64,000 nucleotides of DNA from a virus (Duplodnaviria > Caudoviricetes): positions 29,788 through 93,787 of IMG/VR virus record IMGVR_UViG_2974729571_000001; one strand, 5' to 3'. This document shows positions 1,603-63,458 of this stretch, in pieces. The position numbers and the translations under genes were made by a program. The notes below the pieces were generated by a model. The model was not told the DNA's origin and did not search any database. It saw nothing but the letters and a program-made list of their open reading frames with translations. How positions within the stretch are numbered: the first letter of the stretch is position 1; each line of letters opens with the position of its first letter.

Positions 1603-1750
1603 CAAAAAGTTGATAATAGTATTGTATAATTAAACAAAATTTAGTTTCTTGTAGCGTCCCCCCATAAAGGAGTGAGTATTAACAGTAATCACACCTCTTT
1701 ACGGGGGAATGTTACAAAGACCAATTAATAATCATTTAAAAGTAATTATC

Positions 1751-2029
1751 ATGGATAATCGTATTTATAACAGAGCTAATGCAGCTAATAGTTTACAGAT
1801 TTCTATAATGGGTAAAGTTGAAGCTGTTGCAGAGTTTTCTATTCCTAATGGAATGGGTGGTAAAGAACCTTTCCTATTAAAGAATATAACCGAAGACCCA
1901 ATACAAGTAGAAGTAGTTCTTGCAGGTATGGAAGAACCTATTACTACAACTATTTATTCCGGTTGGAATGTTGAGTTAGTTAAACAAGTTAATAACGCTG
2001 TTGCTGATACGTTACAATATGGGTACTAA
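1751..2029 (+). CDS. Small structural/tail-associated hypothetical protein
   Basis: ORF 1709-2029. Likely start is ATG 1751 (MDNRIYN) after an AT-rich leader. Phage-typical codons; overlaps the next gene. Confidence 0.65.
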   Translation: MDNRIYNRANAANSLQISIMGKVEAVAEFSIPNGMGGKEPFLLKNITEDPIQVEVVLAGMEEPITTTIYSGWNVELVKQVNNAVADTLQYGY

Positions 2030-5000
2030 TACTGGACTTGGTATAGGTATCGGTATTCCTTTTAAAAACAATGCTCTTGGTGGAGATAAGCCTTATTTTC
2101 CACCGGAGCTTAAAGCTAGAATGATTGGTGTTTGGACTAATTATGGTAAGAAGAATACTGATGCTGATAGGAATATTATTAAGAATAAGATTCCTAATGC
2201 TGGCGGAGATTTAGAGATTCTAAATGCTGCATATAAATTAAATAGTGGATTCGGAAAATATAGTGAAGATTTTACTACTTGGACTAAAAATAGTAAGATA
2301 ACTTCTGTTGATTCCGAATCTTTTGATTTTGTTACCAATGTTAATTGGAATTTATTATATTATAAATCAAATATTGGAAAAGATATACCTTCTTTTAAAG
2401 TTCATATTAAACTTAAAGGAGAAGGCAAAGTATTTTATAATTATATAACTTCGGAAGGAGTATTTACTAATAAGGCTATTACATCAGAAGAATATGTGGT
2501 TCCTATTAGTTATAATACTAAATATACTGGTGAAACTCCTGTAAATTGTGGATTTTCTATTGGTATTACATCAGAAGAATGTAGTGGAACTATAACTCAA
2601 ATTCCAAACTTTGAAGATGCTTTTGTTACCGATGGTATAAACGATATGATTATTAGTCAAAAGACTCTTCAAGAAATGGGAGTTACTAAAGAACTTACTA
2701 TTGTTAGTATGATTCATCAGATATCTTGGAGAGATTCTGCTTCTGTTCCATTAACTAATTATATTAGAAATGGAGATACTTTTATAAGAAATTCTATTAG
2801 TAATATTGGTAAAACTGGAATATATGGTTATACATGTTTTAATATTAAAAATGTTAATTCTAGTGCTTCTAAAGTAATAAATAATATATTAGGAGATAAG
2901 AATGACTATATTGTAGAATATAAAGGAGATATATTATCGGAAAGATTTAGTGTACAAGGACATATAGATGGTAATGGTAATATACTTGAAACAAGTAGTG
3001 TTGCTCATTATTGGACTTTTGCTGTATTAGGTAAAGCTACCGAAGATGAGATTAATCTTATCATTGGTAACTATAATCTTGACCGTAGTCTTAAACCTGA
3101 TATATTATGTAATATAGGTAAGCAAGGTATTACTAATGATAATCATGCTGACTTTAATGATAAACTTGTTGATTATAGTGGTAATGGTAGAGATATTCAA
3201 ATGAATAATCTAGCTTGGAAAGGCGGTAGTGGTATTGCTGCAAAACCTTTTGAAACTATTAAGGATTATGCCATCGTGTCTGATGAAGCTAGACAAAAAC
3301 TTACTATTTATAATGAGTTTAGTTACAAAATAAAGTCTAATACCCCTAGTTACTATTGGACAGTACAATCTATTATAAGAGATAATACTTCATATCAAGT
3401 AACTATTATTACTGACAAAGATTGTTATTGGATTAATGCAACGACTTTTATCAATAGTGAAGGAAATAAAGAAAATATAAGAAAAAAATATCCAGTATTA
3501 GCTAATACACCTACACAAGTTATTATATGTGGATTAGACCAATTTGAATATCCCGAAGGTATAGAACCAACTAATGCTGTATCTTATGTTAATTTAGAAT
3601 ATGCAGGAGAAATAACTATTACATTTATTCCTAGTCATAAAGGAGGATTGTTGCTTGACGGAGTAAATGACTTCGGTAAGGTGACAGGAATGCCGATTTA
3701 CAAGGATTATACTATTATTGCTGATTATGAAAGATTTTATTTAGAACCAATTACAGGAGGTCGAGCATCTATTCTTTCTAAATCTTCTAAAGTTGGAGAT
3801 GGTTCTTTTATTTTTAATTTAGAAGACCAAGACGGAGGTAAAGCGTGTTATACATTTGGAGGAGCTAATGGTAATATATCCGATGATATAACAAGAATTA
3901 TTCGTTATCAAAGTAAGTATTATAATACTAAAACATTAAGTATTGGTACAGCAGAAGATAATGATTTTATGGTTCTTGGAAAAGTTCGTGAAGTAGATAG
4001 TAGACATTTCTATGGTGTTATCTATTCTCTCATGACTTTCCCATATAGTATGTCCGAGTTCTTGATAGAGCGTCAGTTGAAGAAGCACAAGCTGGGTACG
4101 CTGTATCCGGATATGGTGGAGTTTAGACCTGTTATAAAAGCTAATAATGACTATGAAATAGTTTATACTGCTATTATCAAACCTGATAATTGGCAAGAAA
4201 TATCTATTGGAGATTATGTAACAGTTGGTAAATCAGTAGCTATTCAAATTAAATTAAACCTTCCACTTGAAGTTACGAATGTATCTAGTAATTCTTTAGC
4301 TGATGTGTCTTTTTATAAAGAAGAGACTGGTGATAATGTTTATACTATATATGGTCGATTATTGGATGGTAAATCTCCTCAAAAGATAAACATCACAATT
4401 GACGAATACATCAGATTCGAAGATATTGTTCAGCCGTATCCATCTTTATTTACTCTTATTGATTATGATACAGAAGAGGTATATAGTTGGGGAAGTAAAC
4501 TAAAAGTAGGTGCTAGGTTTAAGGGTAACGTAGTTAACTTATTACCTAATATGTACGAATGGCAAGGTAATGTATTATATAATGGAGAAGTATTAGATTG
4601 GGGTATTAAGCCCGGAGTTGTTGCCAAAGAGATGGTCTTTAGTTGGAATATGCCATTTAAATATCTAATTGACAACAATGAACCAAAAGTAATCTTATCT
4701 CCTAGATTATTAAGAATACCCAATAGTTCATATAAGATTTTAGGTTATATCCCCGATATTAGCGGTCATGGTAACCATGGTAAGATAAACAATTCTGCTT
4801 ATGCAGAAGGAAGTGGAGTTAATGAAGATGGTTCATACCAATTTGATGGTGTAGACGACTTTGTTACTATTCCTACTATTGTTGGTGGTAAGCAGGTGTT
4901 GATGAAGGTGAATTGGGACAAGACAATTGCAGACGCTATCCTATACGACCAAAGAGGTTATCCTAATGAGTTTGCTATCTATAATGCTGATGCGGACAAT

Positions 5001-5300
5001 AATAATAATCCTGTTTTTGCTTATCAGGCAAGAAATAATGGGCAAACATATATTGATGGTATTTTGAATAAAAATATCAAAGCATCTGAATTGAGGGCTA
5101 TTACTCATAATATAACTATTACAAATGAATTAAGTACAGGGACAAATACATCTTCTCCTGTTATTGGTTCAAATAGAGTACACGATGCTTACTTTACTAA
5201 TATGGCATTGTACGACTTCATGCTCTTCGATGAAATCTCAACAGACGATAAGATTAAAGAGCTGAATGAGTATGTAGGTATAGAAGGCAATACAGAATGA
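2019..5300 (+). CDS. Tail fibre/receptor-binding-like protein with three LamG/concanavalin-like repeats
   Basis: Repeated FVTDGINDMI, LLLDGVNDFG and YQFDGVDDFV, plus DYSGNGRD and DISGHGNHG motifs typical of LamG-like lectin domains. Probable start ATG 2019. Confidence 0.65.
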   Translation: MGTNTGLGIGIGIPFKNNALGGDKPYFPPELKARMIGVWTNYGKKNTDADRNIIKNKIPNAGGDLEILNAAYKLNSGFGKYSEDFTTWTKNSKITSVDSESFDFVTNVNWNLLYYKSNIGKDIPSFKVHIKLKGEGKVFYNYITSEGVFTNKAITSEEYVVPISYNTKYTGETPVNCGFSIGITSEECSGTITQIPNFEDAFVTDGINDMIISQKTLQEMGVTKELTIVSMIHQISWRDSASVPLTNYIRNGDTFIRNSISNIGKTGIYGYTCFNIKNVNSSASKVINNILGDKNDYIVEYKGDILSERFSVQGHIDGNGNILETSSVAHYWTFAVLGKATEDEINLIIGNYNLDRSLKPDILCNIGKQGITNDNHADFNDKLVDYSGNGRDIQMNNLAWKGGSGIAAKPFETIKDYAIVSDEARQKLTIYNEFSYKIKSNTPSYYWTVQSIIRDNTSYQVTIITDKDCYWINATTFINSEGNKENIRKKYPVLANTPTQVIICGLDQFEYPEGIEPTNAVSYVNLEYAGEITITFIPSHKGGLLLDGVNDFGKVTGMPIYKDYTIIADYERFYLEPITGGRASILSKSSKVGDGSFIFNLEDQDGGKACYTFGGANGNISDDITRIIRYQSKYYNTKTLSIGTAEDNDFMVLGKVREVDSRHFYGVIYSLMTFPYSMSEFLIERQLKKHKLGTLYPDMVEFRPVIKANNDYEIVYTAIIKPDNWQEISIGDYVTVGKSVAIQIKLNLPLEVTNVSSNSLADVSFYKEETGDNVYTIYGRLLDGKSPQKINITIDEYIRFEDIVQPYPSLFTLIDYDTEEVYSWGSKLKVGARFKGNVVNLLPNMYEWQGNVLYNGEVLDWGIKPGVVAKEMVFSWNMPFKYLIDNNEPKVILSPRLLRIPNSSYKILGYIPDISGHGNHGKINNSAYAEGSGVNEDGSYQFDGVDDFVTIPTIVGGKQVLMKVNWDKTIADAILYDQRGYPNEFAIYNADADNNNNPVFAYQARNNGQTYIDGILNKNIKASELRAITHNITITNELSTGTNTSSPVIGSNRVHDAYFTNMALYDFMLFDEISTDDKIKELNEYVGIEGNTE

Positions 5301-5353
5301 AGAAAGACGAAATAATTGATTTAACTAACCCGATATTTATAAAAAATGAATAA

Positions 5354-5457: not shown

Positions 5458-5769
5458 ATGATTGATTACATTGTGTTTCCTATTGCTGATATAGATGAAG
5501 AGAAGTCAGCAAAGATTGATGAACTTAATTTAGTTCCTCGTAGTAATGTTAGTAAAGACAAAGTATTGATGAAGTGCCAACATTATAAAGAAGTGTTTCC
5601 TGAAAAAGTAACTAGAACAGTTACTACTGATGAAGAAGGATTGGAAATTATTAGTATTGAATATCCTTATGAAACTTATTCTAATGAAGCACTTGCTACT
5701 TTATTGTCAAGTCCTGAATGGAATTTTAAAGAAGATGAGGTAATAGAAGATTCCCCCATAGAGGAATAA
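5458..5769 (+). CDS. Acidic hypothetical protein (possible tail-fibre assembly chaperone)
   Basis: 103-aa ORF downstream of the fibre gene; function inferred from position only. Confidence 0.6.
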   Translation: MIDYIVFPIADIDEEKSAKIDELNLVPRSNVSKDKVLMKCQHYKEVFPEKVTRTVTTDEEGLEIISIEYPYETYSNEALATLLSSPEWNFKEDEVIEDSPIEE

Positions 5770-7426: not shown

Positions 7427-7659
7427 AGTATACACGCTCCTTTATGGGGGAATAAAAGTATGCCCCACCTTCCTACGCTTTCATAGAAGCTCACCATAGG
7501 ACTTTAATACCTTTCCTTAACTTACTATTATCCGACAGTATTGCGTGCCACCACGGGTCTTAAAATGCGTCACTTGTATAAAAATGTTTACAATGCGAAT
7601 ATCTGTAAGCTAGATAGCAAGCTAGATAAAAGTGCTGAATTAAAATTATTAGTAAAAGT

Positions 7660-7719: not shown

Positions 7720-8412
7720 ATGAGTTCGTTAAATCAAATTGTATCTGAAATAGCTCATGCTATTCATCAGCCGAATAACTTTACTGCGAGACGTACTATT
7801 CGTAGTGCAATTATTCATACGTTCAATGAACAGATACGTCAGACTTATCAACGTCATGCTAATGTCGATAAGATATTAATGCAAAGATACAGGATAAGTT
7901 TAATTAATGTTCCTGACGGAGATATATTCCAAACTCTTGTTAGTACTAAGTATAAAGTTAAGAGAAGTAAGGATAGAGTTCCTAGACCAGTTCGTCTTGA
8001 TAACAATTTACCATTTGTTAGTGTTCGTACTGTTGGATATGATAATATGGCTATTCCATTTATTAAGGAAGCAAATGCTCAATTTTATAAAGCTCTTCCA
8101 GGAATGTGTACCAGTTTAAGTTATGATTATATCAATGGTTATTTATATGTTAATAGTAATGGTAATCCACTTATTGAACCATTAGGTCATATTATCATCG
8201 AATCTCCATTTGAGATACCTACTGAAATTCCAATTGAAACTAATGAAAAAATGGAATCAAGTATTGATAATGATGATGAATTTATTATTCCTGAAGATAT
8301 GGTAGAACGTATTAAAGATGTAATCTATAAACGTAATCTACTTAATGTCGAGAGAGTAACTAATGAAGTTCCAGTTAAAGATGATATAAACCAACAACAG
8401 ATAGAAGTATGA
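7720..8412 (+). CDS. Tail ring/adaptor protein
   Basis: 230 aa. Size, position and the C-terminal F-I-I-P-E-D-M motif fit crAss-like ring proteins. Confidence 0.6.
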   Translation: MSSLNQIVSEIAHAIHQPNNFTARRTIRSAIIHTFNEQIRQTYQRHANVDKILMQRYRISLINVPDGDIFQTLVSTKYKVKRSKDRVPRPVRLDNNLPFVSVRTVGYDNMAIPFIKEANAQFYKALPGMCTSLSYDYINGYLYVNSNGNPLIEPLGHIIIESPFEIPTEIPIETNEKMESSIDNDDEFIIPEDMVERIKDVIYKRNLLNVERVTNEVPVKDDINQQQIEV

Positions 8413-9386
8413 AAGTAAATGCAATAGATAGATATGACATACGTAATATGTATACACATTTTATAGAGACAAGTGAAGAGGAGTACGACCTTGTGTCTCA
8501 CAACATAGTCAGATATAAATCTTTGCTTTATCGAATTAAATACTCTATTGAACAAAATAGAAATGCTGTTGAAGCCATATTTGATATATGTGTATATAAC
8601 TACTGGGAATGGAATACAGATGAGTTAGATACTAATCAAAAAATGGAGAAAGCCATAGATGAGAAGTATGTTAAATTTACGGATGTAAAACAATTAAGAT
8701 ATGGTAATCTTTATCGTAATCTAAAGCAATACTTTAGAGTGCTTCGTAAGATAAAAGATTGTGAGATAAGACAAGATGTATTAAAAAAGCGTAAGTTAAT
8801 TACAAGAGAACAATACAAAAAGTATTGTTACCTGTTCTTTGGAGAAATAGGAAGGCAAGTATTGAGGGGAAAGATTTATAAGTTTGAGAAGAAAATAGGT
8901 TGCCTTATTATAGAAAGAGTAAAAAGAACTGAATCACATGTTACTGCTGACGGTAAAGTTATTAAGCATAGAAAACGTATTAACTTTGTAGAAACTAGAA
9001 GAAATAAAGAAGAACTTATTATTAAAGGACTTACGCCTTATAATAAAAAGAAACATCTTGAAGCTATTGCAAAAGGAGAGGAATACGACGGTGTTAAATA
9101 TATATCTTATAATAATTCGGATTGGTCTTGTAGAGTTATTATGATTGACGGTGCAGTTAAGAATAGGACAGTATTTAAGTTTTGCGGTATAAATAATCAC
9201 ATGAATGTTACAAATGCTGAACTACTTGCAAAATGTCATAGTGTAGAAGATATAATAAATCTTGATACTGATATTAACAATCGTGTCTCTCTTATTTCTA
9301 AGTTTGACCCAAGTTATACTCAAAAATATATTAGAAACAATGAACAAAAACCTATCTTCAATAGAAACTATTATCGCAAGACTTGA
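8409..9386 (+). CDS. Basic protein with HU/IHF-like domain
   Basis: FFGEIGRQVLRGKIYKFEKKIGCLIIER resembles the HU/IHF core. crAss-like phages carry IHF-like genes just upstream of the tail tubular gene. Confidence 0.55.
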   Translation: MKVNAIDRYDIRNMYTHFIETSEEEYDLVSHNIVRYKSLLYRIKYSIEQNRNAVEAIFDICVYNYWEWNTDELDTNQKMEKAIDEKYVKFTDVKQLRYGNLYRNLKQYFRVLRKIKDCEIRQDVLKKRKLITREQYKKYCYLFFGEIGRQVLRGKIYKFEKKIGCLIIERVKRTESHVTADGKVIKHRKRINFVETRRNKEELIIKGLTPYNKKKHLEAIAKGEEYDGVKYISYNNSDWSCRVIMIDGAVKNRTVFKFCGINNHMNVTNAELLAKCHSVEDIINLDTDINNRVSLISKFDPSYTQKYIRNNEQKPIFNRNYYRKT

Positions 9387-10071
9387 TAATGATTTCAATA
9401 TTATGAGTAGCGATTATATACCTAGAGTTGGTGCTTGGTGTATAGATGCTATGAATGAAATGGGTATTCTTCAATATGAAGAAAAAGAAACTACTATTGA
9501 AGTTATTGATAGAGTTGCTTATTTCCCATGTTGTATGAACGCATTTAAAGTGTATGCAGACGGGTGTGAGGTTTCCCCCATAAAGAAAGGGAGCTGTCAT
9601 TGCTCTTCCGGTACTACTGAATACTTCACTCAAGACCGAGAGAAAGCTAGGGAACGAGAAAGTAAGCGTACTGTCGAGATTGACCCCGAAGGTTACGAAG
9701 GAAAGAATTACGTGTATCTTCGGGATGCTAATGCAATCCAATTAAACTTTGATACTGATATTGTTACCGTATCCTATCTTACAGTTAAGACTGTATATAG
9801 TGATACGTTTCATTGTAATATACCTGTTATTCCTAATAACGGTAAACTTATTGAAGCACTTGAATGGTTCTGTATGTGGAAGTTACTAAGTAGAGGAATT
9901 AAACATCAGGTCTATTCTTTACAAGGTTCTATGCCAGTTAATCCATATTTGTTATGGAGAGATTCTCGTGACAGAGCTAGAGCTTCTGTTATTAATGAAA
10001 ATCAAGATGCTAATGCTTATAAAGGTTGGTCGTCATTCTTTTATAATTCAACATTTAGACCTAGAGACTAA
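9340..10071 (+). CDS. Tail tubular/ring protein (P22 gp4-like, Ttub)
   Basis: Probable start ATG 9340 (MNKNLSSIETIIARLDNDF). Conserved position immediately before the muzzle gene. Confidence 0.6.
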   Translation: MNKNLSSIETIIARLDNDFNIMSSDYIPRVGAWCIDAMNEMGILQYEEKETTIEVIDRVAYFPCCMNAFKVYADGCEVSPIKKGSCHCSSGTTEYFTQDREKARERESKRTVEIDPEGYEGKNYVYLRDANAIQLNFDTDIVTVSYLTVKTVYSDTFHCNIPVIPNNGKLIEALEWFCMWKLLSRGIKHQVYSLQGSMPVNPYLLWRDSRDRARASVINENQDANAYKGWSSFFYNSTFRPRD

Positions 10072-13000: not shown

Positions 13001-15488
13001 TTATTCAGAAACTATTAGTTTAGGTACTGTTAATAAAGGAAATATTCCATTAACCATGGATGTTAATGAAGATACTTTAATATCAGATATTAAAACTAAA
13101 TTTGATTCTTACAAAAGTCAGTATGGAAATATAAATACTACTAATGCACATGAAGTAGTTAATATATTCGATGCTATAAGTAATGTTAGATTTTGTAATA
13201 TATTTCCTAAATATAATGATAGTGGTATTGCTCTTTATAAGAATAACAAAGGAGATAAAATGTTTAGAGGAACTAAGATTGCTGATAGTACTTATGTTCA
13301 ACCAATAGAGTTCTTATTTGATAATATACCAATGAAAGAAGATTTCGTAGGATATTTTATATCTTATGAAAAGACAGAACCTATATTAGTAAGTCAAGGA
13401 GTTCCTGTACGTAGAGATGATGATTTTAATACTGCTTTTAATGAACAGGTTAATAATATTCGTTTCTATTATCCTGAATTTGATATATTAAAGAAAGCTG
13501 GAGTAGGTAATATATTTATTACTCAATCTAGATATACTATGGGTAATGCTCAAAGAGGTCCAATGTTTACTGACTTTTATAATAGTGATGATGCTTACAG
13601 TATGTCTACTCCTGATGATGAATTTGGAGACATTAGAGCTGTTAAAAGTTCTAAGATTATAATGGCAGATAGTAGAGATGACAATAATGCTGGGAGAGAA
13701 GCTGTTGTTAATTTAGTATTAAATAAGTCATTAAAATTAGGGTTACATATAGGAGATGGTAGAGGATATGTTAAAGGTATTCTTCTTAATATAAGTGATA
13801 ATCTATATATGTCAGAAAATAAAAGTCTTATTCCTCTAGGCTATATTAAATACGTTAATCCAAAAGGAGATATTTATAATTATGGGTATGAACAATATTA
13901 TTATAATTATAACTATTATTTCATGACTAGTTCCGTATATGCTTTTAATCGTAATGGTGTGTATTATGATGCTAATGACCCAATACCTAAAAAAGCTACT
14001 GATAATAGTAATCTTTATCCTAAATTTCCTAGAGTACATTATGATAGTCAAAGAGTTGGTAATACTCCTATAAGTAGAATAAAGATTGATGTTTTTTCTT
14101 TATATCCGTTATTTGCTAAAACAATTAAAACTGCTCCTGATGAAAGATATTATACTATTAATACAGATGATAATTCTTTTGTTCAGAATGTTCGTATGAT
14201 TCATATGTTACCTAGTACTATTAATGATACATTTGAAATAAGTACTATGTATCTTGATTATGCAGGTAAGAAGTTTATTAATTATAATGAATTACTATAT
14301 ACTAACTTTATTACTGAATATAGACAAACTATTCGTAGAAGCGATGTTATTAGTGATGAATCAGTAGAAAATAAATGGCGTATATTTAGACCTAATGCCT
14401 ATAAGATAATTAGTGAAAACAAAGGAGACATTATTAATGTTATTGGTATAGGTACTTATCTTATTGCTCATTGTGAACATTCAATGTTTATCTTTAATAG
14501 AGATAATACTCTTTATACTAAAGATAAAGATGTGCAAATGTTAATGCCTGATGCTTTTGATATAGATTATCAAGAAGTATTTACTAGTGAAAAAGGTTAT
14601 GGAGGTCTACAAGATTTTGAAGCCTATGTATGTAATGAAGCCGGTTATATATTCCTAGATAGAAGTAAGAAACGATTATATAGATTTGATGAAAAGAATC
14701 TAAATGATTTAGGTGATGGTGTGCAATCTATATTAGATGAATATCTTACTAGTGATACAAAGATACTAATGGGAATGGATAAAGAGAATAATCGACTAAT
14801 CTGCTCCTTTATGGGGGAAGTTTCAGATTTTACCCTTAGTTATAACTTTGTTACTAATACTTGGATTAGTGTTCATACTTATTTATGTCGAGGATTTTAT
14901 AATACGAAAACTAATTTGTATATTAGTTCCTTCAATAAGAAAAACATTATAGGTAAAATAGGATTTGTAAAACCTTCAAGTTATCTTAGATATACAGATT
15001 TTGAGATACCTGTTGATAAGAATCCGTTCTATGTAGGAGAGAATAACAATACTATGGTAGTCGATGTATTATTTAACCTTGAATACGATACTATTAAAGT
15101 ACTTAACTACATTAGTTACGACTTATATAAAGCAAATGATATTAATTTTGCAGGTAATAAGATATTGTTGTTTAGTAACACTTCTATTAGTAGACTAGAA
15201 GACATTACTGTAAATGAACGTAATACTTTTGATACTGTTAAGCCTTATTATGAACATGGCAAATGGAATTATAATTACTTCCGTAGTGTTCTTAATGAAG
15301 TTGTTACTAGTTATCCAATAGATAGACTTACTGGTAAACTTAATGTCGATGTTGATAAGAAGTATGAACCATTTAAATCCAATCTTATTAACGGTAAATA
15401 TTTAGGTGTACGATTTGTAATTAACGATGGTACAGCTAAAATAGAGATTAAGAAGATTGAATGTTATGTTAATAAATATAGAGAATAA
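10071..15488 (+). CDS. Tail stabilization/muzzle protein (P22 gp10-like, Tstab) with large central insertion
   Basis: 1805 aa, beta-rich. LNKD...NA N-terminus, NNRLYVANY and a C-terminal TLSYN...WISVH pattern typical of this family. Confidence 0.7.
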   Translation: MEIVKELNKDGGYESIKNGSMTHAVNAMVSRDGNSIQNEQSIETIITLEENEEIVGVISCSDEIVIFTNNNKIRRYKESTKDITEVITNWNYQGGKVIGTYTYNVNNELIVAITELNSNEDVPLKIINLNKPNYLEGGNDIKYTLVPNTPKANINNWKLVSGSSIYKGIYNFFIRYKQGSDYTGWFPIGAPVLVYDFDNESVVEDSSFGYDDSSGNLPVNYKIGNFVFKERTNLSTEKVNLNIELGLQIDNSGLNYTAYQIGYIINTQKGDTKVYNTSDINIGTSRITIDDVYNESFSLDDITSSFFNLYNVKTICNYNNRLYVANYKEENINSLVSSIDTSNIQVRIKDFRGNNAIKVYAKTRSVGSSIINNPRTFDIGRGYVVTIKGRAYGDGTEYKEVTRKFFLTRIGKNSYGTKCLMIASQDFIRAFYKDSNYDSHSTPFYVSYQNANNLYEPAAFVVIKPDDENWYILEFSRNSNPADVYPNEYSVISSLGFVSHPYVRYGRTNDFFTNTPYSAPDIQRDFNNDFKVVSIEEFDLNMDSREIVEPMWFYLGDVTIGENTYKLKYDHYNPTDYYYYRYDMSSGSPVEVGVRLRKSFQTAYVDYPEVMQEIRTKFPNSQIVLITEYETVNPSGGNADELAKFRGESVDENIRIAYDVSKHKFIFSIKETNIRDDYYKRKSDAVLITNADGETTRYTVNEIFPNISVTFNNEDKSTQDLINEIEGIHKTVYRWKEDREPTEEDFNINETYTVDFYDISSLSGNKGSTKSFTDLKAYPVGYIKETVEEGNQTIITAEKEFMIVIPFIDYLKTVSNYDYDGHERYHIYDRVSVESTLAFEGIVKDLYICFQKDTKFNMDGVSNYSALLLDIPTFGRSDALAISEGGVRSTGNEFFALGSSNQYKELRVDKPAGDYLSYAFGFASPKILDSQTKPEDTEFYGNIYKHAINYCVYNFFIHYVFPNGNITDGVRIANNMTYSETISLGTVNKGNIPLTMDVNEDTLISDIKTKFDSYKSQYGNINTTNAHEVVNIFDAISNVRFCNIFPKYNDSGIALYKNNKGDKMFRGTKIADSTYVQPIEFLFDNIPMKEDFVGYFISYEKTEPILVSQGVPVRRDDDFNTAFNEQVNNIRFYYPEFDILKKAGVGNIFITQSRYTMGNAQRGPMFTDFYNSDDAYSMSTPDDEFGDIRAVKSSKIIMADSRDDNNAGREAVVNLVLNKSLKLGLHIGDGRGYVKGILLNISDNLYMSENKSLIPLGYIKYVNPKGDIYNYGYEQYYYNYNYYFMTSSVYAFNRNGVYYDANDPIPKKATDNSNLYPKFPRVHYDSQRVGNTPISRIKIDVFSLYPLFAKTIKTAPDERYYTINTDDNSFVQNVRMIHMLPSTINDTFEISTMYLDYAGKKFINYNELLYTNFITEYRQTIRRSDVISDESVENKWRIFRPNAYKIISENKGDIINVIGIGTYLIAHCEHSMFIFNRDNTLYTKDKDVQMLMPDAFDIDYQEVFTSEKGYGGLQDFEAYVCNEAGYIFLDRSKKRLYRFDEKNLNDLGDGVQSILDEYLTSDTKILMGMDKENNRLICSFMGEVSDFTLSYNFVTNTWISVHTYLCRGFYNTKTNLYISSFNKKNIIGKIGFVKPSSYLRYTDFEIPVDKNPFYVGENNNTMVVDVLFNLEYDTIKVLNYISYDLYKANDINFAGNKILLFSNTSISRLEDITVNERNTFDTVKPYYEHGKWNYNYFRSVLNEVVTSYPIDRLTGKLNVDVDKKYEPFKSNLINGKYLGVRFVINDGTAKIEIKKIECYVNKYRE

Positions 15489-40070: not shown

Positions 40071-40268
40071 AGTATTATTGTTTGAAATACTATTATCAAT
40101 ATTAACTTCACTATATCCCGCTAGCCTAACGGCTAGCTTTCTTCCCCCATAAAGGAGCAGGTTTGCTGATAATTCCACTCCTTTATGGGGGATTTAGCGA
40201 GCTTGCGAGCGTAGGCAAGTCCAGCAATATAATTATCCCTAGTACGTTGGTTTTATCCAAGTACAGTT

Positions 40269-46491: not shown

Positions 46492-46746
46492 GAAAATCTT
46501 ACTGTTTTTCAGCATATACAGAAAACGATTCTAAGGCTCGTCATTAAACGTAAGACAAAAATAGTATAGTTGTTAAGGTTGGCATAGTAAATCGCACATA
46601 GACGAAATATCAGCTATTCTCGTTGATTTCCCCCATAAAGGAGCGTTGTTTCCTATACGTTCCGACAGTCCTCTTTGAGTATAAGCTAACGATTTATCTC
46701 ACAATCAGAGTATACAATAGAAACACTAACTTTACAAGGGAATAAC

Positions 46747-48379: not shown

Positions 48380-48858
48380 AGTTCTTCAATTTTATATTTG
48401 TTAGGTTGTTCACGCATAAGACCAATAGCAACTTCTCTATCAATAATCATAGACTTATTAGTTTCAATAACAATAATCCTAACTTTAGGATTAGGAGAGG
48501 GAGATGTAACAGATTTCCGCTCCTTTATGGGGGAAGGTTTGGTAATCTGTTTACTAGTCTTATTAGTTCCCTTTTTCTTTTCGTAAACAATAGGAGGATT
48601 AACTTCTTCATATTTAAGATTAGCTTCATGAATCTTTTCAAGAGATTCTTTATCGTAACCTATATATATAAGAGCAGCCATTATCCATCTATATCTAAAA
48701 TGAATAGTTTGAATATAAGGATAATTAGGTAAATCTAATTCATGAAGATAACTAGCAATAGTATCGGAAGTACCGTTAACTTTAAGATTATGTTGAATCA
48801 TCCTTATATCAGAAGCATCTAACTGATAACTAAACGGATTTACATTGTTTAACTTCAT
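48376..48858 (-). CDS. Hypothetical protein
   Basis: 160-aa ORF in the replication operon. Confidence 0.65.
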   Translation of the reverse strand: MKLNNVNPFSYQLDASDIRMIQHNLKVNGTSDTIASYLHELDLPNYPYIQTIHFRYRWIMAALIYIGYDKESLEKIHEANLKYEEVNPPIVYEKKKGTNKTSKQITKPSPIKERKSVTSPSPNPKVRIIVIETNKSMIIDREVAIGLMREQPNKYKIEEL

Positions 48859-49375
48859 TTGCTGTAAGTCTTACAATTATATACTTTTTAGGTTTACCTA
48901 TTCTCGCATGATAGAACTTGAAACACTTTAGATAATCAGTACTTTCAGTCCACTGTATAAAGTTTCCTTTAGATACAGATGTATTAGTTTCATAATTAAA
49001 CTCTCTTGGAATCTTATGACTACTATACATGTCTTTATCTAAGTAATTCTTAATGATAGCTAAGTGTTCAGGATTATCAAACTCAAAGTTACCATAAATT
49101 TTTATCTTAGAAAAGTCAATTGGTGTACCGTCAGAAAGAGAGAGACGAATTAAAATATCAGGATTATCAACCATTTGTTGTCTGACATCATCAAGATACT
49201 TCTCTTCTTCATCTGTTAAAGGATACATAAAATAATAGCTATAAACATTTCCGCTATTACCGAAACTGTTTATAGCTATTCTCTTTAATGGAGCAAATGA
49301 ATTAAAATCAATTACTCTACGTTCTTCTTGTGCCTTTGGAAATGACACATATTCTTCTTCTCTACTCATATTCAA
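48830..49375 (-). CDS. Hypothetical protein
   Basis: 181-aa ORF in the replication operon. Confidence 0.7.
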   Translation of the reverse strand: MNMSREEEYVSFPKAQEERRVIDFNSFAPLKRIAINSFGNSGNVYSYYFMYPLTDEEEKYLDDVRQQMVDNPDILIRLSLSDGTPIDFSKIKIYGNFEFDNPEHLAIIKNYLDKDMYSSHKIPREFNYETNTSVSKGNFIQWTESTDYLKCFKFYHARIGKPKKYIIVRLTANEVKQCKSV

Positions 49376-50495
49376 ATAATGATTCAGTTTGTTCTATAAA
49401 CGAATTAATAGTTTCTCTTGAATACATACTAACTAACTCCGAGAAATCTTTAGCACCATAACTTCTTGGAATAACAATAGGTATAATACCATATTCTTTT
49501 CGTAACCTACGAGCACCACGTACACCTGTCAGGTCATTGTCAAAAAAAGAAATAAGTATTCCATTGTCGTTTAGCTTAGATTGAAGCCAGTTATATTCGT
49601 AATCTTTGAGAACATAACTCTCCGAAGTAACATTAATTACTCCTATTTGAGACTCTGACAAATTCCCCCGTAAAGGATAGGAATGTAACCAGTAACTTAA
49701 TGCTAGATTGTCCTTATATGATTTAGTAATAATAATTATATCATACTTAGGTTTATCAAGATTAAGTATTCCAACAAGACCATTATGATTAGTTATAAAC
49801 TTGATTTCTCCCTTACTTCTATCTCGAAGAGGAAAATAACATTCGATATTATAAATACCGTTACTATCAAGTCCAGTAACATAAGCATAACAAGGGTCTG
49901 ATTCCTTATATGTATATTTAGGACTAGGTTGACAATACCTATTAATATACATTTGGTCAACAGGATAGACAAAATGAGTATTAAGCCAATGTAGACTAAC
50001 TCCCCATTTTCCCCAAATATTCTTATCGTTATTAGTCCAAGTTCTAGTAGCTATTTCAATAATTGGTTTACTAGCTTTGATTTTAGATATTACTTGTTTA
50101 AGTAAGATTTCATTCTCTTCATCTACTTCTCCGTCATATATTATCTTACGGAAAGTATAAGCTATATGCTTTAATATATAATAGAAATCTGCTTTATTAG
50201 CAACATTTATATGACGACCAGTTTTAAAACTTAGTACATAAGCTACTAGGTCGAAACAATCACCAAAGAAAGAGCCATTAAAATCACGAGCTTTTAGCTT
50301 GTGTTTATTATTGAAAGCAAAACCAAATGTTGGATGATTATCAACACGTAAAGGAGAACATATAAGAACATTGTTTTCAACACAATCATTAACTACTGAT
50401 ACAGGTATACCCATATACTTAGCCATAATCATTTCCTGACTAACCTTAGATAATATAAACTCTTTTGTTAAGTCTTGTCTTATTCCTCTACGCAT
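49362..50495 (-). CDS. DNA primase (DnaG/TOPRIM type)
   Basis: SPLR-D-HPTF N-terminal domain, GDCFD, ITKSYKD, and TOPRIM FDNDLTG...KDFSE. Confidence 0.85.
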   Translation of the reverse strand: MRRGIRQDLTKEFILSKVSQEMIMAKYMGIPVSVVNDCVENNVLICSPLRVDNHPTFGFAFNNKHKLKARDFNGSFFGDCFDLVAYVLSFKTGRHINVANKADFYYILKHIAYTFRKIIYDGEVDEENEILLKQVISKIKASKPIIEIATRTWTNNDKNIWGKWGVSLHWLNTHFVYPVDQMYINRYCQPSPKYTYKESDPCYAYVTGLDSNGIYNIECYFPLRDRSKGEIKFITNHNGLVGILNLDKPKYDIIIITKSYKDNLALSYWLHSYPLRGNLSESQIGVINVTSESYVLKDYEYNWLQSKLNDNGILISFFDNDLTGVRGARRLRKEYGIIPIVIPRSYGAKDFSELVSMYSRETINSFIEQTESLFEYE

Positions 50496-53646: not shown

Positions 53647-55122
53647 TTATTCTCCTATTATGAAATCAATTTCATTATCTTTAACTATTTCATAGTCTTT
53701 TCCTCCTTTCGTCTCTATTAACTTCTTCTCTTCGTTCGTACCTCGACAATATATCTTATATATAATGTTAGGTACAGAACTAAAAGATAGATTAGGTATT
53801 CGATATTTTAAGTCTCGTATGGAGCTACAAAGAGGTGACGTGAAAATTACAACGTCTACAACTCCTTTAAAGCTCGTATCAATAGAATTATTTGCCGACA
53901 ATACTTTCATATAGTCGTCATTAAACAGTTCCAAATTTCGCGTTCTTTGGGCTTGAGCTTTTATGATTACAGGCTGTCCGACTTTAGCTCCTGATTTATA
54001 TACTTTAGGTTTTCCGTTTTTGTCATAAGCCTGTATTCCTTCCATATCGTTATGATAGTTTCCGCAATAATCATACTGTAATATACTTATTCCAGTTTGG
54101 AATATCTCACCATTAGTCATAATAGATTTGCCCTCATACTTTATATTAGCATTTAGATATTCTGTTACTTTACTGGCAAATACTCCATTTTTTGAAATAA
54201 TTAGTATTCTCTTGCCTATATTTTCCTTAACTATATCAAGTATAGCATCTAGCTTAACAATATTATCAGTTATTATCTTAGTTCTTTCTCTGATAATATT
54301 ATAAGTTTGATTAACTCTCTCAATTAAAGAACTAGGATTATATAGTTCGTCTATCTTACGACACATAGCATCAGTCATATCCATTTTAGCTGACCAACCA
54401 TTACTTTCCGCTACTTGTAATCTACAAGTTTCAGCTGCAATATTTAATCTAGGATTACCAGTACGACATTCTTCTAACTTATCAAAACTACCAAATATAG
54501 TAACACTTTCATTAATATATTGGCTACATCTATCATAATAGATTCTATCAGCATCAGTTAGGACAACACCCTTTTGGTACTCCTTTATGGGGGAATGAAT
54601 AGAACGATTAATTAAGTGAGCATAATTAATTTCATATACTTTAGGAGCATACTTATACATAAGTACAGCATTATCAGCAACACTATCAATAGCATTAGTA
54701 GCAAGTAGCTTAAACTTAAAATAGTTACCACTATATTTCTCTGCAATCTTTCTGAACTTCTTTACATTAATAGTAATAAGTACATCTTTATGACTATTAG
54801 AACTCGGTTTATATGGAGAACGTTCAACATAATCACGAGTAAGTATAAGACATCGCTTATCAGTTATTAATTGTTTATGAATCTCTTTAAATTCAGAAGT
54901 ATTATCGAGATAATAATTAATGTTAGCTCTATCTTCCATAGTCTCTGTTATAATAAGAGACGTTAAATCAGGAGTTTTAGCTACCATTTTATCTAACACC
55001 ATTGTAACAAAGTTCATTACACTTAGTGGTTCAGATAGAATAACACTACCCACGCCTTTGTTAGCAGACCATTTATTAGCAGCTTCATTATAAATATCAG
55101 TTACATCATTCATTTTAATCAA
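53647..55122 (-). CDS. SF2 helicase-like protein with degenerate ATPase motifs
   Basis: SF2-like framework (W---KG-G, KRILI, C-terminal IY--Y-RGTNEE) but no GKT or DExH. Confidence 0.55.
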   Translation of the reverse strand: MIKMNDVTDIYNEAANKWSANKGVGSVILSEPLSVMNFVTMVLDKMVAKTPDLTSLIITETMEDRANINYYLDNTSEFKEIHKQLITDKRCLILTRDYVERSPYKPSSNSHKDVLITINVKKFRKIAEKYSGNYFKFKLLATNAIDSVADNAVLMYKYAPKVYEINYAHLINRSIHSPIKEYQKGVVLTDADRIYYDRCSQYINESVTIFGSFDKLEECRTGNPRLNIAAETCRLQVAESNGWSAKMDMTDAMCRKIDELYNPSSLIERVNQTYNIIRERTKIITDNIVKLDAILDIVKENIGKRILIISKNGVFASKVTEYLNANIKYEGKSIMTNGEIFQTGISILQYDYCGNYHNDMEGIQAYDKNGKPKVYKSGAKVGQPVIIKAQAQRTRNLELFNDDYMKVLSANNSIDTSFKGVVDVVIFTSPLCSSIRDLKYRIPNLSFSSVPNIIYKIYCRGTNEEKKLIETKGGKDYEIVKDNEIDFIIGE

Positions 55123-57310
55123 ATAAAGTATTTCTCATTCCATAGTATTTCTTAACTAAACGTTTACCTTTACCTTTATTATTACGACTTTGTTCTATTG
55201 GTTCTATAATAGCCATAGCTTCATTATAATAATATAAGTAATTAACATTTAATTCAGATATATCAGTATCATCAACAGTATTACATATAGAAACACGTTG
55301 ACCTGCACATAGAGAACTCTTTTTAACTTGTTCTTCATTATGCTCATTCCAGCCCATACTCTCGACTTTCATCAATGTTCCCCCCGTAGAGGAAATGTAA
55401 AACCTTGTATTCCTCTGTACCACATCTGTTCTTATCTTTCCGTCTACGACATGAGTAAACTCTAGTCTATACTTATGATTAACATTTTGAGTACGACAGA
55501 AATCAAGAATAGATTTAGCATTTCTAAGAGTTTCCATTACAGGAGTTCCATTAATAAAGTATTCAGTAACACATTTAGCTACAATAGGAGAATTATATCC
55601 TTTAGATAAATCCTCTAAGAACATCTTAGGATTCATTCTACCTTTGAACTTACTACTTCCACCACGTTTAACAGTAAGATAACTATTAACGCCTTCGGTT
55701 ACATACTTTGTATAATATGTAAATTCTAGCTCTAACCCTAGATGTTTCTCCCACCAATGACAAATATCATCAGCAGTTTGTTCTAATTCTCTAGGAACAA
55801 TAGTTACAATACCATCTGTATTAGCACTTATAACATGAATACCTGCAAGTTCAAGTTTCTCTATTAACATCAATAAAAATAACTGACCGTTAATAGTAAC
55901 TTGATACATTGCTTTCTTGTCACATAAGAAAGACTTTTCACTTCCCATTTTACCAAATATACCAGCATTTGCTACAATCTTTAGACAAGCAGCAGCAGTA
56001 GCATGTTTATCTCTCTCCATAACATCAAGAGATTTATCTTTGGCTAAATGTTTATGTTCTAGTCGTTCATCAACAATAGTATCAGCTATACGAAACCATG
56101 CTTTAGGAATAAGGTGTTTCTGACATACTTTAAGACTACGTATCATATTAGGATAATAACTTGCAACATCTCTGTCAACAATAATACTATCAGAATTTTC
56201 AACATATACGGCTGGAATCTCATTTGAATGTAGACCCCCAGTTGCGATGGTATAGGACGTGCCCATAAAGGTAAATTCTCGGTCAAATTCGCCCTTTTCT
56301 CCCTTCAAGGTAAGGGAACGTATGCCTGACAAAATATCGTTCAATTCAGGGGTCGAAAATGCGATTTTATCTGACAAGATTTCGGAAACCAAGATTTTCC
56401 TACGTATTGTCTTAGTATCAATAAAGGCTTTAGGATGTAGACCAGTGAACTTACTATATAGTTTAACAATAACTTTATCAGCTATTGTACTTCTACTAGC
56501 AGAATACACATCTACTTTATATTCCTCACTAATACGATACCTTAGAAGAACTTCTTCCTGATTCATCCTGATTAACTCGGCAACAATATATACATCATTG
56601 TCGTTATAATCAGCCATTTCATTAAGATATTCTTTAGGAATAAATCGCTCAAATACATTACGATAATGAATGTTAAGTTCTCTATCAGTCATTCCCTTTG
56701 CTTCGGGTAATCTCTCGTGATAATAATGTCTATCTAAATCACCAATAGGTGGCATAGTATACTCTTTTAGATTATACCATTTAATATTAATAGAAGTCTG
56801 TTTAAGACTTTTATGATAATGGTCTAACCTAAATATTTGGAATAAATCTAAATCTCTAAATGCAACGTTATTACGAAGTATAAGAGAAGTGAAGTTATCA
56901 GTCCAAAGAGTATCATTATTAGAACTACGAATAACTCTCTGTGATGTTTCATATAAGAATGTAATTAACTTACTAGGTTTATCAAATTGATTATAATACA
57001 TAAGTAATGCACTTAACATTAAGCGGTCGTACTTCCGATTATTATATCCGAAATAATCTGCTTTCTGTTGTAACCAATATAATAAACTGAATAAATCAGT
57101 ATCATCATCTTCATATAAAACAAAACGTTTCTTAGGTATTGTTTCTAAACGTTGTTTTATCTCTGCAATAGTAAGTTTATCAACAAGAGGAATAGCTTTT
57201 CCATCATTATCGACACAATCACTAAATATTTTGAGATAACTACGTAAATCAACAAATACTACCGAGAAGTAATTTCTAGTTACTTCGACATCATAACACA
57301 TAGAACTCAT
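55115..57310 (-). CDS. polB: Family B DNA polymerase with 3'-5' exonuclease
   Basis: Exonuclease motifs YDVE, GYNNRKYD, YNDNDV; polymerase motifs DVASYYPN, KIVANAGIFG, ANTDG. Confidence 0.9.
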   Translation of the reverse strand: MSSMCYDVEVTRNYFSVVFVDLRSYLKIFSDCVDNDGKAIPLVDKLTIAEIKQRLETIPKKRFVLYEDDDTDLFSLLYWLQQKADYFGYNNRKYDRLMLSALLMYYNQFDKPSKLITFLYETSQRVIRSSNNDTLWTDNFTSLILRNNVAFRDLDLFQIFRLDHYHKSLKQTSINIKWYNLKEYTMPPIGDLDRHYYHERLPEAKGMTDRELNIHYRNVFERFIPKEYLNEMADYNDNDVYIVAELIRMNQEEVLLRYRISEEYKVDVYSASRSTIADKVIVKLYSKFTGLHPKAFIDTKTIRRKILVSEILSDKIAFSTPELNDILSGIRSLTLKGEKGEFDREFTFMGTSYTIATGGLHSNEIPAVYVENSDSIIVDRDVASYYPNMIRSLKVCQKHLIPKAWFRIADTIVDERLEHKHLAKDKSLDVMERDKHATAAACLKIVANAGIFGKMGSEKSFLCDKKAMYQVTINGQLFLLMLIEKLELAGIHVISANTDGIVTIVPRELEQTADDICHWWEKHLGLELEFTYYTKYVTEGVNSYLTVKRGGSSKFKGRMNPKMFLEDLSKGYNSPIVAKCVTEYFINGTPVMETLRNAKSILDFCRTQNVNHKYRLEFTHVVDGKIRTDVVQRNTRFYISSTGGTLMKVESMGWNEHNEEQVKKSSLCAGQRVSICNTVDDTDISELNVNYLYYYNEAMAIIEPIEQSRNNKGKGKRLVKKYYGMRNTLFD

Positions 57311-59140: not shown

Positions 59141-59392
59141 TTAAGGTTTGACTATTTGGTTAACACTATACTGTACGCAACACGTTCCTTTACGGGGGAA
59201 TATCTTATATTTATCAGTATTCATAATTCTAGGTAATGGAGTAATTTCACAACATCTATCACTATGAACATCTACGATAATACAATGATAAGCATTAACA
59301 CATAAATCATGAGATATAACAGCTTTAAGTCCTTCAAAATATACATCAAAAGTACTATCAGGATTAACACATTGTTTTAAATCTACAACCAT
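59141..59392 (-). CDS. Small Cys-containing hypothetical protein
   Basis: Start MVVDLKQ at 59392. Confidence 0.6.
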   Translation of the reverse strand: MVVDLKQCVNPDSTFDVYFEGLKAVISHDLCVNAYHCIIVDVHSDRCCEITPLPRIMNTDKYKIFPRKGTCCVQYSVNQIVKP

Positions 59393-59393
59393 A

Positions 59394-59857: not shown

Positions 59858-60178
59858 TTATTTAATAGGAGCATCTGACCGCTCCGCTTCGCTCCGCTTA
59901 TTCCCCCGTAGAGGAGTTGTGAATTGTTTAACCTTTTGCTTAATTTCATCTATAATAGCTTTATTCTTATCAATACTATCGTTACTATAAAGATTATAAC
60001 TATGTGTTTCATCAATATTTCTATTAATATCAAGAACAAATAGATACATACTAATATAAGAAGTATTGTTAAGATTACAATTAGTATAAAGGTCACTAGA
60101 GAGTTTAGTACTATACAACAGACTAAGCTGTATTTTCTGTAACTCTCTAAACAATTTAGTAAATTCTTTCTTATTCAT
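59858..60178 (-). CDS. Hypothetical protein
   Basis: 106 aa. The C-terminal tail (PLRGNKRSEAERS) is dictated by the overlapping DNA motif and hairpin. Confidence 0.6.
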   Translation of the reverse strand: MNKKEFTKLFRELQKIQLSLLYSTKLSSDLYTNCNLNNTSYISMYLFVLDINRNIDETHSYNLYSNDSIDKNKAIIDEIKQKVKQFTTPLRGNKRSEAERSDAPIK

Positions 60179-61228: not shown

Positions 61229-61287
61229 TGAACCGACATTTATTTAACCCTTTGTCAGATATTAATTAAATAGAGTACGTATCGGCA

Positions 61288-61674: not shown

Positions 61675-61690
61675 AACTATTAGTATTTAA

Positions 61691-61843: not shown

Positions 61844-61915
61844 AATCTTAAATTTTGTAATACGGATGCAAGTATAGCAATAAATAATGGAAATACCAAA
61901 CAATAATGATAATAT

Positions 61916-62860: not shown

Positions 62861-62912
62861 AAATACATGTATTAATTATTAAGAATTTAATTTTAAAAGT
62901 AATGAATCTATA

Positions 62913-63098
62913 TCATAATAATATAGTATGATATAGTAAACGAATAAAGCTAATAACTATTATATAAGTTATTATAGTTTGAACTAAAGAACGGACGATA
63001 AAAACCTTCTTATAAGAAAGGTAATTAAACATCAAATACAACAAACATATAACTATTCCAATTAAAGATAGAAATATGTGGAATTGATAAGTAGTCAT
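62913..63098 (-). CDS. Small two-TM membrane protein
   Basis: 61 aa with two hydrophobic helices. Confidence 0.5.
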   Translation of the reverse strand: MTTYQFHIFLSLIGIVICLLYLMFNYLSYKKVFIVRSLVQTIITYIIVISFIRLLYHTILL

Positions 63099-63274
63099 AT
63101 ACTAGAAAGATTAGATATTGCAACACAGATAATAAGTATAGCCATAACAGCTATAATAGATATTATCATAGACAAAGTACTAGACCTCCTATCAATGAGA
63201 TAGTTATTCAGTAAGAGAGTAGTAATAACAAATAATAATACAGTTATTATAAAGAAATAAATATCGGTATTCAT
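63095..63274 (-). CDS. Small two-TM membrane protein
   Basis: Start MNTDIYFF at 63274; ATGA overlap with the next gene. Confidence 0.5.
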   Translation of the reverse strand: MNTDIYFFIITVLLFVITTLLLNNYLIDRRSSTLSMIISIIAVMAILIICVAISNLSSI

Positions 63275-63458
63275 AATGATATAAGTTAAATGGTAAATAA
63301 AAGGTGAAGATGTAACAACAATCACGCTCCTTTATGGGGGAGAAAAGCGAGCTTGCGAGCGGGACTAGACCAGCTAAGTAACAAACCAAATAGTAATCTA
63401 GATACTAATAGTAATACATATCTATACATATTTATACATATTACTATACTTATTCTAT

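Follow-up and report, generated by a model that had tools for sequence, protein, structure and literature searches.

What purpose is served by a short, G-rich word that recurs throughout the genome of a crAss-like phage, on both strands and straight through essential genes? This question is raised by a 64,000-nucleotide stretch of viral DNA (hereafter the window), which corresponds to positions 29,788 to 93,787, and thus to the final 64 kb, of the 93,787-bp IMG/VR record IMGVR_UViG_2974729571_000001, a record that is circular by assembly (55-bp overlap). The source phage is related at the 93% level to Bacteroides phage crAss002 (Intestiviridae, Jahgtovirus). No viruses of the human gut are more abundant than the crAss-like phages, yet hardly anything is known about how their DNA is copied and handled. 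An original prediction, derived from the letters of the window alone, had drawn attention to the repeated word and had interpreted it as a strand-specific signal in the DNA itself. Our analysis reveals a word that is under selection as DNA, that is evenly spaced on each strand in its own right, and that is bordered on one side by a patch of elevated sequence diversity. Tentatively, we favor the view that it might serve as a start site for primer synthesis.

The element in question is a 16-base word of the form R-YYYYYY-TAY-GGGGG-AA (R, purine; Y, pyrimidine). Exact matches to YYYCYYTAYGGGGG occur 23 times in the window, as opposed to the 0.01 matches expected from dinucleotide shuffles, and a 24th copy, ATCCTTTACGGGGGAA, which begins with A, is present at 49663-49678 on the minus strand. 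The originally reported count of 24 copies and their span from 1657 to 63342 were thereby recovered, as was the claimed scarcity of G5 runs outside the motif, given that a single run in the window (at 56235) does not belong to a copy. The whole genome contains 30 strict copies, 15 on the plus and 15 on the minus strand, together with degenerate copies carrying one or two changes, several of which are kept in relatives. A position table compiled from 59 sites features a purine preceding the motif (78%), six pyrimidines, an invariant T-A, a further pyrimidine, an invariant run of five G residues, and AA in about 88% of the cases; the Y6-T7-A8 core is invariant across all 59 sites. Gene direction switches at about 40 kb of the window, with genes on the plus strand before this point and on the minus strand after it. 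Of the 24 window copies, 16-17 lie within coding sequences, in sense and antisense orientation and in various frames, just as had been stated; genome-wide, about two thirds of the sites are in genes, half of them sense and half antisense.

Selection acts on the DNA word and not on the protein, as had been surmised from the diversity of the encoded peptides. When synonymous codons were permuted within each gene, a procedure that leaves the proteins and the codon usage unchanged, a mean of 0.43 sites in genes (maximum 2) remained, compared with the 22 observed genome-wide; the codon-shuffled background does not account for the frequency of the motif. Conservation was assessed with 11 genomes anchored on that of the source phage (crAss002 and ten IMG/VR records, 89-92% identical; 12 genomes in all), and an orthologue was present in the relatives for almost every site. 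The fixed letters of the motif diverge by 1.4%, in comparison with 11-12% in the flanks and 10.7% genome-wide, a reduction of about 8-fold. Its pyrimidine positions diverge by 11%, but these changes are almost exclusively transitions between C and T (transition to transversion ratio of 6.7 versus 1.1-1.4 elsewhere), in keeping with the earlier remark that the 5' arm varies almost only between these two bases. Purifying selection consequently acts on two features, the letters at the fixed positions and the restriction of the tract to pyrimidines.

The original prediction had placed particular emphasis on an alternating orientation of the copies. Along the window, they are arranged as - + - + - + - - + - + - - + - + - + - + - + - +, so that 21 of 23 neighbors alternate (analytic P 3e-5), and 26 of 30 do so in the circular genome (label permutation P=1.6e-4). 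While the alternation is hence significant, it does not stand as a property of its own: each strand is evenly spaced when considered alone, and alternation is therefore a by-product. The gaps between same-strand copies have coefficients of variation (CV) of 0.37 and 0.53, whereas random placement yields 0.9 (P<1e-4 and 0.01), which substantiates the anticipated regularity of spacing. When the phase between the strands was randomized and the gaps of each strand were kept, a mean of 22.5 of the 30 neighbors alternated, and the observed 26 corresponds to P=0.09; the same gap-shuffle gave P=0.14-0.99 in twelve other genomes. Alternation as the primary feature was rejected on the basis of these 13 genomes (P=0.09-0.99). 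The CV of the combined gaps (0.67) is close to that predicted from two independent, evenly spaced strands (0.64). Same-strand neighbors are never less than 2 kb apart, whereas opposite-strand neighbors approach each other to within 28-120 bp.

The same rule applies to the relatives. In every Intestiviridae genome tested, the CV is 0.3-0.5 on at least one strand (P<=0.003), and in most of them on both; in the genome cr110_1, the alternation is not significant (22/36), yet each strand is regular. The split between plus and minus copies is roughly even in most of the other Intestiviridae genomes tested, with cr271_1 and G019 being plus-biased. Overall, each strand has a site roughly every 6 kb, with the largest gaps measuring about 9-14 kb and the two strands being mutually independent, and the proposal of a strand-specific signal that recurs every few kilobases on each strand finds its quantitative expression in this spacing. 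The upper limit of about 5.6 kb that had been given for any gap cannot be extended to the entire genome, since a 10.3-kb gap between strict copies, partly bridged by degenerate copies, is present outside the window.

A further property of the word concerns the DNA next to it. Over the 12-20 nt located directly 5' of the pyrimidine tract (in coordinates of the G-run strand), diversity amounts to 0.15-0.2 versus 0.088 elsewhere, an approximately twofold excess, whereas the 3' side is at baseline. In Jahgtovirus, this excess is significant when paired over 30 sites (P=1e-4) and also when only in-gene sites are considered (P=0.003), and it has the same direction at sense and antisense sites (antisense, P=0.004; ten sense sites, P=0.11). 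None of 2000 random anchor sets reached the observed flank diversity. All types of substitutions, as well as indels, are elevated, and the excess is found again in a second genus, Diorhovirus (cr3_1 and three IMG/VR relatives; P=1e-3 and 7e-6). If the sites serve in priming, this hypervariable patch would be the scar of primer replacement or of low-fidelity synthesis at a start point. Taken as a whole, the observations suggest a single-strand reader that requires a site at a bounded distance on each strand, is indifferent to transcription, and acts asymmetrically toward the 5' side of the tract.

Folding of the individual word does not contribute to this picture. It had been suggested that the G-rich strand folds YYYC onto GGGG through G-T wobble pairs, but two modal-type forms of a single copy gave -0.1 to -0.4 kcal/mol (z ~0), no better than shuffled sequence, and the positions of the supposed loop vary between C and T in the same way as those of the supposed stem; the intra-motif hairpin was rejected for these reasons. 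A third variant of the motif folds at -3.2 kcal/mol (z -3.1). Substantially more stable structures are formed by two inverted pairs of copies, one at 40142-40193 (-19.5 kcal/mol, z -6) and the other at 1657-1709 (-12.4 kcal/mol, z -3), and these two pairs, which are situated at module ends, may also be terminators. The motif copies of the window are as follows:

1657-1672, minus strand: intergenic; forms the left half of an inverted pair whose spacer is 21 nt long.
1694-1709, plus strand: intergenic, right half of this inverted pair.
5751-5766, minus strand: antisense, 3' end of a small coding sequence.
7437-7452, plus strand: intergenic, upstream of the IHF-like gene.
9573-9588, minus strand: in a coding sequence, antisense; most relatives have a TAA variant.
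14804-14819, plus strand: in a coding sequence, sense.
15746-15761, minus strand: in a coding sequence, antisense, with six G residues.
20448-20463, minus strand: in a coding sequence, antisense.
23484-23499, plus strand: in the coding sequence for a 2019-aa protein, sense; followed by a GC-rich mini-hairpin.
25797-25812, minus strand: in the same 2019-aa coding sequence, antisense.
29519-29534, plus strand: in the gene for the virion RNA polymerase (RNAP), sense.
34588-34603, minus strand: in the virion RNAP gene, antisense.
40142-40157, minus strand: intergenic, at the convergence point of two gene modules; left half of an inverted pair (20-nt spacer).
40178-40193, plus strand: right half of this inverted pair.
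43237-43252, minus strand: in the DUF932 gene, sense; the crAss002 version has decayed to AGGGG.
44380-44395, plus strand: in a coding sequence, antisense.
46628-46643, minus strand: intergenic.
48520-48535, plus strand: in a coding sequence, antisense.
49663-49678, minus strand: in the primase gene, sense, encoding a conserved P-L-R-G; orthologous position in 6/6 other genera tested.
54580-54595, plus strand: in the helicase gene (53647-55122), antisense; orthologous site in 5/6 other genera.
55379-55394, minus strand: in the DNA polymerase gene, sense, with six G residues.
59185-59200, plus strand: antisense, in a small open reading frame or intergenic.
59901-59916, minus strand: sense, 3' end of a small coding sequence; followed by a mini-hairpin of the GCGAAGC type.
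63327-63342, plus strand: intergenic, in the divergent region separating two modules.

Several of these sites merit comment. The virion RNAP gene contains a sense-strand site about 2.5-3.2 kb into the gene in all lineages checked, and this site encodes L-Y-G-G wherever the frame was read (the phage studied here, crAss002, jaberico and ZA); in the same gene, a decayed copy, TTTCTTTAGAGGGGAA, is located at 30485-30500 on the minus strand and occurs in the same decayed form in crAss002 and two IMG/VR relatives. Putative GC-rich mini-hairpins, either of the GCGAAGC type or with tandem G-A pairs, are found within 5-10 nt after several, mostly intergenic, copies (23500-23530, 40194-40225, 59870-59900 and 63343-63375). 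The DNA polymerase gene (55115-57310, minus strand) is assigned as a DNA polymerase by PHROGs; Pfam gave no hit, and in NCBIfam it resembles DNA polymerase II (family B) only weakly, with a score that falls far short of the cut-off (E=3e-4). The IHF-like gene, formerly placed at 8409-9386, has to be relocated, as the crAss002 orthologue annotated as IHF-like maps to about 7720-8412 of the window.

Every Intestiviridae genus that we examined carries the signal in a dialect of its own, most of them with a similar copy number:

cr3_1: dialect TTCCTCTACGGGGGAR, about 27-31 copies.
cr271_1: dialect ...CTACGGGGGAGCT, 17 copies.
jaberico: dialect CCTYTACAGGGG, 26 copies.
cr110_1: dialect TCCTCTACGGGG(GGTC), 36 copies.
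cr8_1: two classes, G7CTAGAG and G4CGGCT, about 27 copies.
Prototype crAssphage (isolate ZA): two classes, ...YACGGGGGGTC and ...YACGGGGAGT, 14 + 16 = 30 copies.

The two sub-classes that coexist in ZA and in cr8_1 are interleaved along the genome and differ only 3' of the G run; they may reflect two readers or one tolerant reader. Between genera, merely 1-5 of 8-15 mappable sites are orthologous, and the copies in the primase and helicase genes are the only ones found at the same protein position in nearly all Intestiviridae genera. Selection consequently maintains the number and the spacing of the sites, not particular places.

The Intestiviridae word was not found in Steigviridae. Gut members of this family (the crAss001-like Kehishuvirus and DAC15) contain an analogous word, CTTCTGGWG (W, A or T), with 24-33 copies on both strands as compared with 2 copies of the reversed control; the genomes in question are PhiCrAssBcn19, DAC15, tikkala, Bcn1 and Bcn24. 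It is preceded by a G-poor stretch of about 16 nt. Its spacing is even on one or both strands in three Kehishuvirus genomes, albeit less pronounced than in Intestiviridae, and no even spacing was found in DAC15. Judged by these features, CTTCTGGWG looks like the counterpart of the Intestiviridae word. No over-represented 8-10-mer was detected in the marine Steigviridae member phi14:2, and the Crevaviridae genome cr127_1 harbors ten copies of an element of about 30 nt, TAATGG-CCACAAGGGCGAGAGGTGTTCCG, which occurs in either orientation, in many cases with two copies separated by 170-560 bp, and which looks unlike the lattice words. In view of phi14:2 and cr127_1, a universal lattice of the Crassvirales was rejected.

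The word is not enriched in 61 genomes of Bacteroidales, which contain 0-11 copies per 2-8 Mb genome, a number that does not exceed the control with the reversed pattern, and a host signal was rejected for these 61 genomes. This lack of enrichment in the host order, along with the fact that phages infecting a single host genus use different dialects, suggests that the reader is encoded by the phage. Close inverted pairs in the arrangement present in the phage were not found in bacterial genomes; a scan for the opposite arrangement retrieved mostly hairpins from Treponema and other unrelated hairpins. A few Treponema/Spirochaetaceae genomes, including the Spirochaetaceae metagenome-assembled genome Nc350_bin98, contain short palindromic units of the type TACGGGGG-loop-CCCCCGTARRRR on numerous contigs; these units probably belong to a family of REP-like or terminator hairpins that has no connection with the phage signal. 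In agreement with the earlier statement that such a system had not been described in Crassvirales, no account of the word was found in the literature that we searched, including the report on crAss002 (PMC8042965), the preprint on p-crAssphage as a phage-plasmid, and the study of the phi14:2 RNAP (bioRxiv 10.1101/2020.03.07.982082).

Which phage protein might read the word? Our leading candidate is encoded within the window itself:

49362-50495, minus strand: DnaG/T7-gp4-type primase gene, putative reader of the motif (PHROG 12622 DNA primase; AlphaFold model with pLDDT 88.8; Foldseek).

Neither Pfam nor NCBIfam nor a sequence search of the PDB gave a match for this protein; its family is settled because the fold search with the predicted structure returned, as the top 30-plus Foldseek hits, only DnaG-family primases (Aquifex ZBD+RPD 2au3, the E. 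coli DnaG core, T7 gp4 1nui, and T4 gp61). The protein has an N-terminal ZBD-like part. Orthologous primases show 46-61% identity across Intestiviridae and 25-28% in Steigviridae, whose word differs.

We tentatively propose, as the likeliest of several explanations, that primer synthesis on a single-stranded template starts at the motif, which would act as a dedicated site of high affinity, with the DnaG/T7-gp4-type primase of the phage, acting together with the replicative helicase, as its most plausible reader; among the candidates named originally, the primase would be the one that the evidence favors. The strand carrying the G run would be the template. G5-AA together with the pyrimidine at position 9 would form the uncopied 3' flank gripped by the enzyme, and Y6-T7-A8 would be the initiation trinucleotide, in which A8 would be cryptic and the first nucleotide would be placed opposite T7. 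Copying of the pyrimidine tract from position 6 to position 1 would then yield a short all-purine primer, for instance pppAAAGGAG, and the purine commonly found 5' of the tract would mark the end of the all-purine stretch. Synthesis would be directed away from the G run, and its extension would lead into the hypervariable side. With a site about every 6 kb on each strand, the lagging-strand or displaced template could be primed at bounded intervals, whichever strand it happens to be.

This proposal draws on established properties of DnaG-type enzymes. Their initiation trinucleotides are CTA in Firmicutes and CTG in E. coli, and synthesis starts opposite the middle T (PMC5429622); the Intestiviridae word has a YTA core and the Steigviridae word contains CTG, both with a central T. 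The T7 primase uses 5'-(G/T)2GTC-3' sites and makes primers consisting only of A and C, and with both the T7 and the M. tuberculosis enzymes the affinity is set by a 3' flank of 7-10 nt and not by the 5' flank (PMC12839067). The pattern of the phage word corresponds to this arrangement, with a conserved Y9-G5-AA positioned 3' of the trinucleotide and a 5' flank that is not conserved, and the cognate enzyme appears to be present in the form of the DnaG-type primase predicted from the fold. About 26 strong sites were picked from the T7 genome, compared with about 30 sites here, and the Okazaki fragments of T7 are 1-6 kb long (PMC12839067), compared with a mean same-strand spacing of about 6 kb. 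A short core of 3-5 nt used stochastically is not what we found, as the word is 16 nt long, near-invariant, and present in about 30 evenly spaced copies; if it is a primase site, it represents an unusual, deterministic variant.

A number of points weigh against such a role in priming. The primase recognition sites documented to date are, to our knowledge, all far shorter than 16 nt, and we know of no genome-encoded lattice of this kind that has been described for any primase. Sites that are equally frequent on both strands everywhere require bidirectional forks and are otherwise unexplained. RNA primers are normally removed, so that a heritable scar requires low-fidelity gap filling or retained ribonucleotides. 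Of the C>T versus G>A sawtooth that single-strand exposure would produce between same-strand sites, a slight trend was seen on the right of plus sites but none on the left of minus sites. Furthermore, the 5' flank has weak preferences that the simple model does not predict (a purine at the junction and at -8, few G residues, and a purine block from -16 to -19). No hypervariable flank was seen at the Steigviridae word (0.033 versus 0.039), in a comparison whose overall diversity is only 0.04 and which effectively comprises two informative genomes. Finally, phi14:2 belongs to a family with a primase homologue (Steigviridae) and is devoid of an over-represented word, and the Crevaviridae genome cr127_1 has its different 30-nt element only.

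The main rival to the primase explanation is that the words are nick sites on both strands: a phage nickase, such as an HNH endonuclease, would cut one strand at each site, thereby generating localized single-strand interruptions on both strands of the virion or replicating DNA, and repair synthesis from the nick would give rise to the hypervariable flank. Of the genomic patterns documented so far, nick-associated motifs come closest; the annotation of crAss002 lists a DNA ligase as well as three HNH endonucleases, and resynthesis of the C-rich strand from a nick would enter the hypervariable side. We nevertheless consider this scenario unlikely, because the nick motifs described so far occupy one strand only and are unevenly spaced, whereas both strands are used equally here (15 plus, 15 minus) and each of them evenly; two conserved pairs would, moreover, put nicks on opposite strands 34-35 bp apart, and the restriction of the degeneracy to pyrimidines and the YTA/CTG core would be left without explanation. 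Somewhat less probable still are oriented binding or stop sites for another DNA-handling protein, be it a Chi-like signal that tames an exonuclease/RecT system, a helicase-loading site, or a target of a genome-organizing protein. An oriented word that is evenly spaced on each strand would suit a circularly permuted genome packaged by the headful mechanism, and crAss002 is reported to use pac-type headful packaging (PMC8042965); among the annotated proteins of the phage are RecT, a Gam-like protein and an exonuclease of the PD-(D/E)XK type, and the phage-specific dialects and missing enrichment in the host order suggest a phage-encoded reader for a protein-binding site as well. Known Chi sites, on the other hand, are host words of 5-8 nt that are enriched in the host genome, contrary to what we found in the 61 Bacteroidales. 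Chi-stimulated exchange extends over kilobases, whereas the flank effect covers only 12-20 nt. No candidate for a sequence-specific reader of this type was identified, and the two-letter degeneracy is again left unexplained.

We regard it as improbable that the word is a promoter recognized by an RNA polymerase of the phage, be it the virion RNAP or a different enzyme that operates on single-stranded or melted DNA, with the transcript starting at the G run or at the complementary purine tract. T7-type promoters are of similar size and have the same layout of pyrimidines, TAT/TAC and a G run, and the putative stable mini-hairpins that follow several intergenic copies are reminiscent of those at the 5' ends of T7 transcripts. 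The virion RNAP of the crAss-like phage phi14:2 transcribes only single-stranded or denatured DNA, and the promoter for this enzyme is not known (bioRxiv 10.1101/2020.03.07.982082). Against a promoter speaks the fact that half of the sites are antisense to genes and that most are buried deep in long genes; if the transcript started at the G run, the recognition part should be upstream, yet it is precisely this region that is hypervariable. The related suggestion of virion-RNAP entry sites for the internalization of the DNA is not supported, as these would need a single orientation, and sites that are half sense and half antisense do not provide it. It is very improbable that the word has no function of its own and merely reflects a selfish miniature element, an artefact of mutation or assembly, or a peptide motif that is repeated. 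A few sites do coincide with conserved peptides (L-Y-G-G of the virion RNAP, P-L-R-G of the primase), but the copies are read in different frames and both orientations, the codon shuffle leaves 0.43 instead of 22 sites, orthologous sites with 8-fold lower divergence persist across 12 genomes, flanking duplications or element-like units are absent, and the same system is found in genomes that were independently assembled and in cultured phages.

The even spacing on each strand, the override of codon choice in essential genes, the maintenance of number and spacing despite the turnover of positions, and the lineage dialects lend themselves to the view that an unrecognized step in DNA metabolism is at work here. 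It is conceivable, although we regard this broader statement as doubtful at present, that Intestiviridae, including the prototype crAssphage, practice a deterministic priming of the lagging strand, with about 15 high-affinity sites per strand that are kept through essential genes and a heritable scar of 12-20 nt left by each start, and that gut Steigviridae might do the same via CTTCTGGWG. If the words are indeed priming sites, they would constitute the first genome-encoded lattice that fixes the starts of Okazaki fragments, and they would parallel, in a prokaryotic system, the hotspots of mutation known from Okazaki junctions in eukaryotes. Should they be nick sites, they would be the first two-strand, evenly spaced case of a phage feature that has been unexplained for 50 years. 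The dialects are compact lineage markers, and the cultured phages crAss002, crAss001 and DAC15 bring the question within reach of the laboratory.

Among known systems, the nick motifs of T5, phiKMV-like and tf/Rembedalsseter phages are asymmetric words of 9-19 nt, located in and out of genes, with dialects that co-evolve within each group and a function that is unknown; about 13-14 copies are present in tf and Rembedalsseter (PMC3517423, PMC11780129). The phage word shares with those of T5/BF23, of phiKMV-like phages (CGACxxxxxCCTA/CTCCGG) and of tf/Rembedalsseter (WACTRTGAC) that it is dispersed, asymmetric, found in and out of genes, and group-conserved with dialects. It differs from them in not having all of its copies on one strand: theirs are one-stranded and clustered, whereas the word described here occupies both strands equally and at regular intervals. 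With the Chi sites of RecBCD/AddAB it has in common an oriented, strand-specific and over-represented word that would be useful on both strands; Chi sites, however, comprise 5-8 nt and are over-represented on the host chromosome, whereas this word of 16 nt is phage-specific and not over-represented there. The G4-type origins and the ssiA/ssiB signals of RSF1010 are, like the proposed start sites, specific sequences that direct a primase to one start on single-stranded DNA, with ssiA and ssiB being placed on opposite strands; these signals are hairpins of 40-100 nt that occur once or twice per replicon, in contrast to a short, unstructured word with about 30 copies. The closest parallel might be the strong sites of DnaG-family primases, which are read on a single-stranded template: their trinucleotide has T in the middle and ends in a cryptic base, the 5' portion that is copied draws on two letters, and the 3' flank sets the affinity, a scheme that the sequence pattern of the phage word would match. 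What would set the phage word apart from these sites is a near-invariant conserved block of 10 nt within a word of 16 nt, its even spacing on both strands, and its maintenance within genes, while its roughly 30 copies per genome correspond to the few dozen strong sites of T7.

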